Positions 24,019 through 26,779 of a stretch of 32,947 nt of DNA are shown one piece after another (the first letter of the stretch is position 1; each line of letters starts with the position of its first letter). Where the stretch lies: contig CAAGEF010000077.1 of the NCBI GenBank assembly GCA_900768805.1, positions 1-32,947 of the forward strand, given 5' to 3'. Source of the stretch: Clostridia bacterium (GTDB lineage Bacteria > Bacillota > Clostridia > TANB77 > CAG-508). The translations under genes were made by a program, and so were the position numbers. The notes below the pieces were generated by a model. It was not told where the DNA came from, ran no database searches, and saw only the letters and a program-made list of their open reading frames with translations.

Positions 24019-24144
24019 ATGGAACAAAATAATCAAAATAAAACAAATAAAACACCAATAAAAATTGGTTTAGTAGATTGGATAATAATTCTTATGGCAT
24101 GCAGTACAATTGCATTAGGGGCTATATATTTTATAGCTAAATAA
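24019..24144 (+). CDS. Small membrane peptide (41 aa, not in the ORF track)
   Basis: My own translation gives MEQNNQNKTNKTPIKIGLVDWIIILMACSTIALGAIYFIAK. The Shine-Dalgarno GAGGAG lies 7 nt upstream. The peptide has a polar N-terminus and one C-terminal TM helix, and the gene has its own promoter. Confidence 0.5.
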   Translation: MEQNNQNKTNKTPIKIGLVDWIIILMACSTIALGAIYFIAK

Positions 24145-24175: not shown

Positions 24176-24200
24176 AAATTTGTTGAAAGAATTAAATTCA

Positions 24201-24240
24201 AAACAGATAAAAAAAAAACCCTTTTTTTATCTGTTTTTTT
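24201..24240 (+). terminator. Intrinsic terminator hairpin in the pyrG 5' leader, candidate attenuator
   Basis: The stem pairs cagataaaaaaa (24204-24215) with tttttttatctg (24222-24233), has loop aaaccc and is followed by T7. It lies about 55 nt upstream of the pyrG ATG and downstream of the candidate promoter. Confidence 0.6.
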
Positions 24241-24293
24241 ATTTATTATTTAATAATAAATAATTGTTTTAAGGGTGTGGAAGGAGTTTATTC

Positions 24294-25889
24294 ATGAGTA
24301 CAAAGTACATTTTTATTACAGGTGGAGTTGTATCTGGTTTAGGAAAAGGAATTACAGCATCATCTTTAGGAAGATTATTAAAAAATAGAGGATATAAGGT
24401 AATAAATCAAAAATTAGATCCTTATATAAATGTAGATCCAGGAACAATGAGCCCTCATGAACATGGAGAAGTTTTTGTAACAGAAGACGGTGCTGAAACA
24501 GATTTAGATTTGGGTCATTATGAAAGATTTACTGATGTTAATTTAAATCAAAATTGTAGTATGAGTTCTGGAAAAATATATCAAAATGTGCTAAATAAAG
24601 AAAGAAGAGGAGACTATTTAGGAAAAACAGTACAAGTAATTCCTCATATAACGAATGAAATAAAAGAAAAAATTTATAGCTTTGAAGATTCTGGAGTAGA
24701 TATTGTTATAACAGAACTTGGAGGAACAATTGGAGATATTGAGAGTTTAGCTTTTGTAGAAGCAATTAGACAAGTGGGGTTAGAAAAATATCCTGAGGAT
24801 GTTGTTTATATACATGTTACTTTACTTCCATACATAAGTGGTTCTTGTGAATTAAAGTCAAAACCAACACAACATTCTGTAAAAGAATTGCAATCATTAG
24901 GAGTAAAACCTGATATTTTAGTATGTAGAACAGAAATAGAAATTCCAGAAGAGATTCAGGCAAAGCTTGCACTATTTTGTAATGTTAGACCAGAAAATGT
25001 TATTCCTAATATGACAGCAGAAAATTTATATGCAGTACCTTTAATGCTTGAAGAAAATGGTTTGGCAAGAGCTGTATGTAAACATTTACATTTAGAAAAA
25101 ATGGAGCCTCAAAATCAAGAGTGGGAAAAAATGATTGAAAACATTAGAAATTCAAATCAAGAAATTGATATTGCGATTGTTGGAAAATATATGCAATTAC
25201 AAGATTCTTATTTATCTGTTGCAGAGAGTCTTCGTCATGGTGGTTTTGCAAATAATGTAAAAGTTAATGTTTCATTTATAGATTGTGAAGAAATTAATGA
25301 TAGCAATGTAAAAGATATTTTAGGTTACTATAGTGGAATAGTAGTTCCAGGAGGCTTTGGAAATAGAGGAGTTGAAGGGAAAATTGCTACAATAAAATAT
25401 GCTAGAGAAAATAATGTTCCTTTTTTAGGAATATGTTTAGGAATGCAAATGACTGTTGTAGAATTTGCAAGAAATGTGCTGGGAATTAAAGATGCAAATT
25501 CTGCTGAATTTGATCCAGAATGTAATAATCCAGTTATACATATTATGGATGAACAAAAAAATATTACAGAAAAAGGTGGAACAATGAGACTTGGAGCTTA
25601 TCCTTGTAAAATAAAGGAAGGAACTTTAGCAAAAGAAATATATGGAGAAGAATTTATAAGTGAAAGACATAGACATAGATATGAATTTAATAATAAATAC
25701 AAAGAAATGTTAGAAGAAAAAGGTCTTATTTGTTCTGGTACATCTCCAGATGAATCATTAGTAGAAATTGTAGAATATAGAAATCATCCTTTTTTTATAG
25801 CTGGACAATTTCATCCAGAATTTAAATCAAGACCAGATAGACCAGCTCCTTTATTTAAAGCTTTAGTAAAAGCTGCTAAAGAAAAATAA
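24294..25889 (+). CDS. pyrG: CTP synthase
   Basis: [23 protein letters not shown] is present, along with the glutamine amidotransferase motifs GICLGMQ and HRHRYEFN. Confidence 0.97.
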
Positions 25890-25934: not shown

Positions 25935-25970
25935 AAAAGCTGAAAAGAAAGTAATCTTTTCAGCTTTTTT
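25935..25970. terminator. Bidirectional terminator shared by pyrG (+) and the convergent minus-strand gene
   Basis: The 13-bp stem pairs aaaagctgaaaag with cttttcagctttt and has an 8-nt loop. It is A-rich on one side and T-rich on the other. Confidence 0.8.
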
Positions 25971-25977
25971 GTACGAT

Positions 25978-26697
25978 TTAGAAAATATCATTATTTGTTG
26001 AACTTATAATTTTAGTGTTGCATGAAATCATAATGTTTACACAATGACCAAAATTTTCTACTTTGTTACCGTTCTGATCTGTAGTTCCATATTTTTCAAT
26101 TTGAGTTCGATAATCTGTTAGTGTAGCAGAACATGAAAGTCCATTTCCATATCTGTATCCAAGAAAAAAAGCTGATTCTGCATTAGCGTCTTGGATATCT
26201 GGAGATTTTGGATCAAGATTGAAAAAGAGTGGAAGAATTGCCTGAGTTATTGGATTATGCAAATGTTTGAATATTACTGTATTTAAATAAGTGAATATTT
26301 CATTAAAAGAAATATTATATACAGTTAAATCTATGTTGTTTATAATCCCTTTTGGAATACTATTAACATTATCTGTATATGCAATAACCTTTTTGTTTAA
26401 AGCTAAAGCATAGCCACATTCCCAAGCTGTTCCAGAATCACAAGCTGGATTTTCGATTGTGCCTCTGAAATTTGACAGATTTGCGATTACATAATCACAA
26501 GCTTGAATCGTTTTAATATTAGCCTCTACAATAGCTTTAGCAGTAACTTCTGGAGTTTTTCCTTTGATAGCATTATTTAAAGGATATAAACCTTCAAATC
26601 CATTGGCTTTACAAATTTTTTTGTGGATAGAACCAATGGTATCTGCTTCAGGAAAAAAGATTTCAGGTCCAGCTAAATATATTTTCCGGTTTGCCAT
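25978..26697 (-). CDS. Nucleoside 2-deoxyribosyltransferase/Rcl-like N-terminal domain fused to an unrecognised C-terminal half
   Basis: The N-terminus KIYLAGPEIFFPEA and ...ACDYVIANLSNFRG....PACDSGTAWECGYALALNKKVIAY match the NDT-family hallmarks (AGP motif; D-x-G-T-x-x-E-x-G-Y-A). A strong GGAGG Shine-Dalgarno is present. It is the only minus-strand gene here and uses CGG for Arg, which is rare in this window. Confidence 0.7.
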   Translation of the reverse strand: MANRKIYLAGPEIFFPEADTIGSIHKKICKANGFEGLYPLNNAIKGKTPEVTAKAIVEANIKTIQACDYVIANLSNFRGTIENPACDSGTAWECGYALALNKKVIAYTDNVNSIPKGIINNIDLTVYNISFNEIFTYLNTVIFKHLHNPITQAILPLFFNLDPKSPDIQDANAESAFFLGYRYGNGLSCSATLTDYRTQIEKYGTTDQNGNKVENFGHCVNIMISCNTKIISSTNNDIF

Positions 26698-26750
26698 AAA
26701 AATTCCTCCTTAGAATTATCTATTTTCGGTTGAATAACGGATGATAACTG

Positions 26751-26779
26751 ATTATAACATATTTTTGGGGGATTGTAAA
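26751..26779 (-). promoter_or_regulatory. Promoter for the minus-strand NDT-like gene
   Basis: On the minus strand, TTACAA (26774-26779) is followed by a 17-nt spacer and TGtTATAAT (-10 at 26751-26756). Confidence 0.5.

Follow-up and report, generated by a model that had tools for sequence, protein, structure and literature searches.

Nucleoside 2'-deoxyribosyltransferases (NDTs) are characterized by an Asp and a nucleophilic Glu at the start of helix α3 (Asp92/Glu98 in LlNDT, Asp94/Glu100 in DpNDT), by a Tyr at the end of strand β1 that positions the nucleophile (Tyr7 in both LlNDT and CtNDT), and by an acidic residue in helix α2 (Asp72 in LlNDT, Asp74 in DpNDT, Asp62 in CtNDT). In the solved NDTs, the catalytic unit is a dimer whose two chains complete each other's pockets; in the purine deoxyribosyltransferases TbPDT of T. 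brucei, LmPDT of L. mexicana and EfPDT of E. faecalis, it is the end of the region inserted between β4 and α4 that completes the pocket of the partner subunit (PMC12372993). TbPDT and LmPDT are highly active NDTs (PMC12372993). The present analysis concerns a gene of a Clostridia bacterium, located between pyrG and mutL on the minus strand of contig CAAGEF010000077.1, all 32,947 nucleotides of which constitute the analyzed stretch (the window). The gene encodes a protein of 239 amino acids, which is a rare new structural variant of the known NDT family and not a new kind of system. It is regarded, with moderate confidence, as a chromosomal, vertically inherited salvage NDT that would act as an asymmetric single-chain pseudo-dimer with one composite active site. 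Full-length proteins of this type are termed long forms; relatives of approximately 160 amino acids, which do not carry the insertion described below, are termed short forms.

Residues 6-113 match the NDT family PF05014 with E=6.2e-32 (110.6 bits versus a cut-off of 28.8), while no family of NCBIfam matches the protein. Sequences in the PDB are matched in two pieces, namely by TbPDT (2a0k) and LmPDT (6qai), with residues 3-108 corresponding to chain residues ~5-101 and residues 193-233 to ~101-141. By its sequence, the protein is a member of the group formed with the T. brucei and L. mexicana purine deoxyribosyltransferases ("group 2" NDTs), and deoxyribosyl transfer would be the activity expected from this family membership. 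Among 54 full-length homologues of 225-265 amino acids, Tyr7, Asp87, Glu93, Asn221, and Met223 are invariant. Tyr7 is part of the motif KIYLAGP; Asp87 and Glu93 are part of CDSGTAWECGY and align with the equivalent residues of 2a0k, 6qai, and 7o62 (DpNDT), in agreement with the N-terminal NDT domain and the nucleophilic Glu in AWECGY that had been recognized in the initial annotation. Asn221-Ile-Met223 aligns to the sequence N-L-M of 2a0k and 6qai. At the position of the catalytic Asp74 of DpNDT the protein has Asn60, and the identical Asn is found in TbPDT and LmPDT; the D62N mutant of CtNDT retains about 50% of its efficiency (PMC10913048).

The segments of the protein follow the order A (β1 α1 β2 α2), B (β3 α3 β4, with Glu93), C', linker, B', and I (inserted region and β5'), and are encoded as follows.

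25978..26697, minus strand: complete coding sequence of the long-form NDT, from the list of open reading frames (ORFs); 239 amino acids plus stop, ATG start
26368..26697, minus strand: residues 1-110, catalytic copy β1 α1 β2 α2 β3 α3 β4, holding Tyr7, Asn60, Asp87, and the nucleophile Glu93
26260..26367, minus strand: residues 111-146 (C'), remnant of the Asn-x-Met/β5/α5 end of copy 1
26230..26259, minus strand: residues 147-156, variable linker joining the two copies
26116..26229, minus strand: residues 157-194 (B'), degenerate second β3-α3-β4
25981..26115, minus strand: residues 195-239 (I), "inserted region" of the TbPDT/LmPDT type (DxRxxxEKYG...VEDF..P.NIM) and final strand

Conservation is highest in B and I and lowest in C' and the linker, the latter having zero conserved columns and the highest column entropy of the protein (3.35 bits). 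Residues 1-110, with the Glu93 codon at 26419-26421, align to residues 9-107 of 2a0k and 6-103 of 6qai. In C', the Asn-x-Met element is degenerate, with an invariant Pro115 and with Asn120 present in just 52% of the 54 homologues. In B', the position of the nucleophile is taken by an invariant Phe177, and the segment has conserved residues of its own, Asp162, Asp170, and Gly180. The last segment, in which the codons of Asn221 and Met223 lie at 26035-26037 and 26029-26031, respectively, likewise contains an invariant Gly204 and Phe216; residues 193-233 correspond to residues 101-141 of 6qai and 106-146 of 2a0k.

The approximately 80 residues that separate the catalytic copy from the inserted region are best explained by comparison of individual segments. 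A profile of the short-form β3-α3-β4 unit aligns to residues 150-196 over 43 columns (hhalign, probability 95%, E=2e-8), and the score is reached by 0 of 200 column shuffles (z=14.1). The same stretch is matched by the β3-α3-β4 unit of the long form itself (residues 60-110; E=1.2e-5; 0 of 200 shuffles, z=8.0), while the short-form β5-α5 C-terminus matches residues 109-156 with E=1.8e-4 and a score of 17.0, compared to 5.4±1.2 for the shuffles, none of 200 reaching the observed value (z=9.5). Four control pairings of unrelated segments gave E=0.18-0.53, shuffles being confined to the main pairings. The duplication is clear solely with segment-level profiles and shuffle controls; a first hhalign comparison of the insert with the whole N-terminal half was weak (21 columns, P=7e-4, probability 26%), and the alternative alignment of the full profiles was nonsignificant (E=0.38). 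BpNDT (6evs) and DpNDT, neither of which has the inserted region, can be aligned without a break up to residues ~127-132, which places the decayed Asn-x-Met position of copy 1 near Pro115-Asn120.

An AlphaFold2 model of the full protein, built from the 54-sequence alignment, has a mean predicted local distance difference test score (pLDDT) of 94.3 and a predicted template modelling score of 0.92; the insertion is ordered in it and adds three strands along with several helices. At residues 124-127, the full model has a strand which is absent from a fragment model lacking domain 1. In a Foldseek search of the full model against the PDB, the significant matches are exclusively chains of NDTs, DNPH1, and the related N-glycosidase BcmB, and they cover just ~40-46% of the model. 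The N-terminal core superimposes on 6qai_A with a root-mean-square deviation (rmsd) of 2.0 Å over 111 columns, whereas the full model aligns to the 2a0k monomer over 238 columns at an rmsd of 12 Å only; the C-terminal module would consequently be placed differently from its counterpart in the TbPDT monomer. The fragment model of residues 109-239 (pLDDT 86) fits 2a0k and 6qai over 79-80 columns at 2.0-2.2 Å, which is about 35 columns beyond what the canonical C-terminal segment can account for. A foreign domain within the insert was considered and rejected, as NDTs are the only significant Foldseek matches of the fragment. Sequence profiles and models together support an origin of the insertion as a partial duplication of NDT, so that one and a half NDT copies are fused in the protein. 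The C-terminal half, which the initial annotation had left as unrecognized, is accordingly of two kinds: the last ~45 residues (with residues 193-233) are the normal end of an NDT, whereas the ~80 residues in the middle are a novel, NDT-derived insertion.

In the proposed mechanism, which follows what is expected of the family, Glu93, positioned by Tyr7, would attack C1' of a 2'-deoxynucleoside and thereby free the base; a covalent deoxyribosyl-enzyme would form, from which the deoxyribose would be transferred either to another free base or to water. Copy 1 (residues 1-146) is a complete catalytic domain, the Asn-x-Met loop of which has decayed. Copy 2 (residues 157-239) has lost β1-α2 as well as the nucleophile (Glu to Phe177), with the Asn221-Ile-Met223 loop being kept. 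This dead half-copy would stand in for the partner subunit, probably supplying the Asn-x-Met loop in cis, and would thus complete a single active site within one chain in a presumed geometry. From the asymmetric conservation, that is, Asn221 in 100% versus Asn120 in 52% of the homologues together with the loss of the Glu in copy 2, a single-chain pseudo-dimer is the simplest reading.

A second case is offered by P0098, an uncharacterized protein of 352 amino acids from the search of representative proteins, which is a tandem fusion of two complete NDT domains. In its copy 1, the β1 Tyr is replaced by Cys and the nucleophilic Glu by Asn, with E-N-L-M being kept; its copy 2 has kept the Tyr, Asp, and Glu and has V-G-I instead of N-L-M. 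As judged from these residues, P0098 looks like an independent single-chain pseudo-heterodimer, and its reciprocal decay supports the same complementary logic in the long-form NDT. As in the long form, one copy is live and one is dead, and it is the dead copy that holds the Asn-x-Met loop (Asn-Leu-Met); unlike in the long form, both copies are complete, the dead copy comes first, and the two proteins are only distantly related. Tentatively, it may be proposed that, by partial duplication followed by complementary decay, an obligate homodimer whose symmetric halves shared two sites has become a single polypeptide with one composite site, to which the live domain would contribute the Tyr, Asp, and Glu and the dead half-domain the Asn-x-Met loop. 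The same outcome would have arisen independently in P0098, and the acceptor pocket, now asymmetric, may have shifted its substrate range, for instance, towards non-canonical bases that are dealt with jointly with the YjjG-like and RdgB/Ham1 house-cleaning enzymes.

Long forms are rare. When 1.84 billion representative proteins were searched with a profile, 2,896 members of the NDT family were obtained (E≤1e-3), among them just seven full-length long forms, which are separated from the others by a gap in profile score (269 bits for the weakest long form, 200 bits or less for the rest). So far, they have been found only in uncultured gut Clostridia and Saccharibacteria, with two metagenome-assembled genomes (MAGs) of Saccharibacteria and one of Clostridia among the genome representatives. 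An NDT-derived duplication of this sort is not described for any characterized NDT, and in the NDT literature, searched with an NDT term required, no duplicated, pseudo-dimeric, single-chain, or long-form NDT was found.

The genomic surroundings were read from the loci that carry a long-form NDT, which comprise 12 distinct gene neighbourhoods. Adjacency to pyrG is found in five lineages and adjacency to mutL in four of them, the window included. The other loci with a recurring gene order are given below, with identities to the window.

L087: mutL-NDT-pyrG; pyrG 93%, mutL N-terminus 98%, NDT 60%
L094: mutL-NDT-pyrG; pyrG 85%, mutL 92%, NDT 62%
L001 (rabbit-gut Clostridia MAG): miaA-mutL-NDT-pyrG-polC; pyrG 85%, miaA 78%, NDT 49%
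L095: ruvA-NDT-pyrG; pyrG 83%, NDT 47%
L089:3079-5100, L090, L091:5160-7155, L092, and L093 (spore-forming Clostridia clade): apparent operon of YjjG-like nucleotidase, NDT, and RdgB/Ham1

In the operon of the spore-forming clade, the stop of the NDT gene overlaps the start of the Ham1 gene. The YjjG-like non-canonical pyrimidine nucleotidase scores 141-146 bits, just under the cut-off of 159.9; RdgB/Ham1 is an XTP/dITP diphosphatase, and an Rrf2/WYL regulator gene is located upstream. Among the remaining neighbourhoods, one has a HAD phosphatase, IMPDH, and GMP synthase nearby, another a NUDIX hydrolase and a thioredoxin reductase, and another ribosomal and tRNA-modification genes; a dCMP deaminase is found near one of the Saccharibacteria copies. 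No recurring defence partner is present across the 12 neighbourhoods, the neighbours in the window being pyrG, mutL, and miaA. From these housekeeping and nucleotide-metabolism contexts and the lack of a recurring defence partner, the cellular role is most likely deoxynucleoside salvage and base exchange, and it possibly includes house-cleaning of the nucleotide pool or recycling of deoxyribose from non-canonical nucleosides. The plain salvage enzyme, which the initial annotation had listed as its alternative, is hence favored over the defence effector. As a separate observation, L091 and L093 have a deformylase gene upstream of the operon, at a distance of about 1 kb, and P0069 (342 amino acids, 85 member sequences) is a peptide deformylase (PF01327) fused to a short-form NDT domain.

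Several observations weigh against a vertically inherited salvage enzyme built as a single-chain pseudo-dimer. The protein could also form a conventional dimer carrying the extra module on its outside. Asn73 is found where the "ADLS" motif of TbPDT and LmPDT has Asp. The divergence of the NDT is much greater than that of the genes in synteny with it (60% identity versus 93% for pyrG and 98% for the mutL N-terminus); this divergence and the rare Arg codons of the gene both fit low constraint and would also be shown by a conflict gene. Finally, in the P0035 clade (L085:12303-13720, L086:6876-8293), an AbiEi/AbiEii toxin-antitoxin or abortive-infection pair is found at a distance of about 6 kb from the long-form NDT, in a region that also holds a PDDEXK_2 transposase-like gene and several helix-turn-helix (HTH) regulators. 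The HTH and PDDEXK_2 neighbours recur on the contig of the related P0031 (L096), which ends before the AbiE position; in the other neighbourhoods examined, the association was not seen.

The first alternative to be weighed is that the protein dimerizes as TbPDT and LmPDT do, swapping the loop between chains, and that the insertion is no more than a decorative or regulatory addition to a canonical NDT. In such an enzyme, the NDT-derived insert would affect nothing but the oligomeric state, the stability, or the regulation, in the manner of the β4-α4 inserted region of the tetrameric E. faecalis PDT. The β4-α4 position is indeed a known insertion hot spot which reshapes quaternary structure, with dimers, tetramers, and hexamers being known (PMC12372993). 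The insert is, moreover, the least conserved part of the protein, and completion of the active site in cis is itself inferred. What makes this alternative unlikely is the pattern of loss: Asn221-x-Met223 is invariant and its first-copy equivalent decayed, the second-copy nucleophile is gone, and the reciprocal situation is met with in P0098. This asymmetry is predicted by a one-site pseudo-dimer and is not required by a symmetric dimer. In addition, the C-terminal module packs on B', as its counterpart does on α3-β4 in 2a0k, and not on the catalytic copy, as reflected in the 12 Å rmsd.

The protein could also differ from known NDTs in its chemistry and be a hydrolase or an N-glycosidase for other substrates, such as a 2'-deoxynucleoside 5'-phosphate N-hydrolase of the DNPH1/Rcl type, an N-glycosidase acting on ribonucleosides or CMP, or an enzyme that clears non-canonical nucleosides, with the half-domain reshaping the acceptor-base site. 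The significant structural matches include DNPH1 and the CMP N-glycosidase BcmB (E=1e-5 to 1e-4), the operon with the nucleotidase and RdgB/Ham1 points to non-canonical nucleotides as substrates of the pathway, a degenerate half-copy in place of a symmetric partner could alter the acceptor-base pocket, and Asn73 would be in line with such a change. Bona fide NDTs and PDTs, however, rank first by both sequence and structure; the DNPH1 chains come below all NDTs in the structure search (E=1e-5 versus 5e-8), at 15-17% identity, and PF15891 is matched with E=0.008 only, under its cut-off. The transferases are matched by the Asn-x-Met loop and likewise by the acidic pair at 214-215 (Glu-Asp in the consensus, Glu-Asn in this protein), the pair lying 6-7 residues ahead of the Asn in the same way as Asp111, which contacts the leaving base (PMC10913048), precedes Asn118 in CtNDT. 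Altogether, a hydrolytic or otherwise diverted activity is improbable.

The initial annotation had taken the gene for an orphan, single-gene islet of raised GC content that may encode a nucleotide-centred defence or conflict effector; this would be a stand-alone N-glycosidase which depletes or edits nucleotides or NAD or attacks modified phage nucleotides. In favor of this interpretation, NDT-like domains serve as effectors in systems of the retron Ec86 type and the fold is related to TIR; the fast divergence relative to the flanks, the rare Arg codons, and the AbiE pair of one clade have been mentioned above. With 54 full-length homologues and an order mutL-NDT-pyrG that is kept in three other lineages (NDT 49-62% identity), and ruvA-NDT-pyrG in a fourth, the gene is a conserved chromosomal gene and not a defence islet. 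A compositional islet was likewise rejected: the GC content of the gene is 30.7%, compared to 28.1% for the window, 29.6% for pyrG, and 24.8-34.3% for the ORFs of the window, although the first third of the gene alone reaches 33.9%. Of the codon usage argued for in the annotation, a weak oddity is left, two of four Arg codons being CGN versus about 6% in the window. A defence effector is very improbable, given that PADLOC returned no significant match (solely ThsB, with E=0.009 and 13 bits over 27 residues), that no partner sensor gene is present, that tblastn against 50,697 phage and 72,556 plasmid records and a fold search of the viral structures in BFVD yielded short-form NDTs (up to 58% query coverage) and short-form NDT-like viral proteins, respectively, and no long form, that the gene has kept its chromosomal place next to pyrG and mutL (or ruvA) across five lineages, and that the other contexts are those of housekeeping and nucleotide salvage, with the closest characterized relatives being salvage enzymes.

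Within the window, the gene converges with pyrG and diverges from mutL, which is followed by miaA, an HlyD-like gene, sepF, and divIVA. The flanking genes and the signals for expression are the following.

24294-25889: pyrG (CTP synthase), converging on the NDT gene
25935..25968, both strands: 14-bp hairpin in the gap where pyrG and the NDT gene converge, flanked by T/A runs that give a U-run on each strand
26705..26710, minus strand: Shine-Dalgarno sequence AGGAGG, 7 nucleotides upstream of the NDT ATG, read off the sequence
26751..26779, minus strand: sigma-70-like promoter TTTACA-17-TATAAT with extended -10 TG, matching at 11 of 12 positions, the best in the region
26919-29405: mutL, diverging from the NDT gene

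These features agree with the arrangement given in the initial annotation, which had also described a promoter of its own, a strong Shine-Dalgarno sequence, and a shared bidirectional terminator; the promoter at 26779..26751 is to be read as a consensus match only, and the number of such sites in the region does not exceed the shuffled expectation. The hairpin at 25935-25968 is likely the bidirectional terminator of pyrG and the NDT gene. On the minus strand it folds with a free energy of -18.4 kcal/mol (z -5.75, 0 of 200 shuffles), and the plus strand folds into the same hairpin; direct folding was needed to see it, as it was not called by a simple terminator scanner. It is plausible that the NDT gene is the sole minus-strand gene of the window, as had been stated before: all remaining minus-strand ORFs of at least 90 amino acids overlap plus-strand ORFs, and none of the three of them that were tested had a match in Pfam.

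Three further observations pertain to the flanks. A 16-bp A/U-rich hairpin (AAACAGAUAAAAAAAA...UUUUUUUAUCUGUUU) with a U-run is located at 24200-24243, about 50 nucleotides ahead of the pyrG start (24294), and could be either a pyrG leader attenuator or the terminator of a small upstream ORF; an Rfam scan gave zero matches in the window, this hairpin included. A 41-amino acid ORF (MEQNNQNKTNKTPIKIGLVDWIIILMACSTIALGAIYFIAK) with a GAGGAG Shine-Dalgarno sequence and one predicted hydrophobic helix is found at 24020-24142 on the plus strand, in the 434-bp AT-rich gap that extends from an alpha-amylase-family gene to pyrG. MutL contains a long low-complexity linker rich in Lys, Glu, and Asn, which differs strongly in length and sequence between relatives; the proteins of the window and of L001 (7087-9792; 828 versus 901 amino acids) are 58% identical overall, with a nearly identical N-terminal ATPase domain.

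For the question of defence, the outcome is deflationary, a conserved salvage-type enzyme being found instead of a new defence islet. The interest of the protein would rather lie in its being a natural example of an obligate homodimeric enzyme rebuilt as one chain via partial duplication and complementary loss. NDTs serve as biocatalysts for nucleoside analogues, where oligomeric state and stability are practical issues (PMC12372993, PMC9570332); a monomeric single-site NDT, if true, would be a useful biocatalyst scaffold. The operon of nucleotidase, NDT, and Ham1 suggests, furthermore, a route by which deoxyribose is recycled from damaged nucleotides.

Summarizing the relation to known systems, the NDT-like effector of retron Ec86 (Retron-Eco1) and the TIR/ThsB domains belong to the same broad fold class as the long form, which differs from them in having a conserved housekeeping context and no reverse transcriptase, non-coding RNA, or sensor partner. 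DpNDT (7o62) and BpNDT (6evs) align contiguously with residues 1 to ~130 of the long form. EfPDT (7m5h) and DpNDT are tetramers and BpNDT is a hexamer, all made of single-copy subunits, none of which has an internal duplicated half-domain; in EfPDT, changes in the β4-α4 inserted region rewire the quaternary structure, and the end of the region completes the pocket of the partner (PMC12372993). The best matches in both sequence and structure are TbPDT (2a0k/2f62) and LmPDT (6qai). They share with the long form the Tyr, the α2 Asn, the Asp and Glu of D-x-G-T-A-x-E-x-G, and the Asn-x-Met loop, as well as the "inserted region" EKYG...VE(D/N)F..P.N(I/L)M after β4. Residues 193-225 of the long form align to residues 106-137 of 2a0k and 102-133 of 6qai, and the region here follows the duplicated β4' and not β4. 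Between β4 and this region, the long form has ~80 extra residues, comprising a β5-α5-like remnant and a dead β3-α3-β4, so that it reaches 239 amino acids versus ~150-165 for the single-copy subunit of group 2 NDTs; its loop before Asp87 is four residues longer, Asn73 replaces Asp, and the C-terminal α5 is missing. TbPDT and LmPDT each form a symmetric homodimer that has two active sites (PMC12372993), whereas the long form, as far as its model suggests, looks like one chain with one site.

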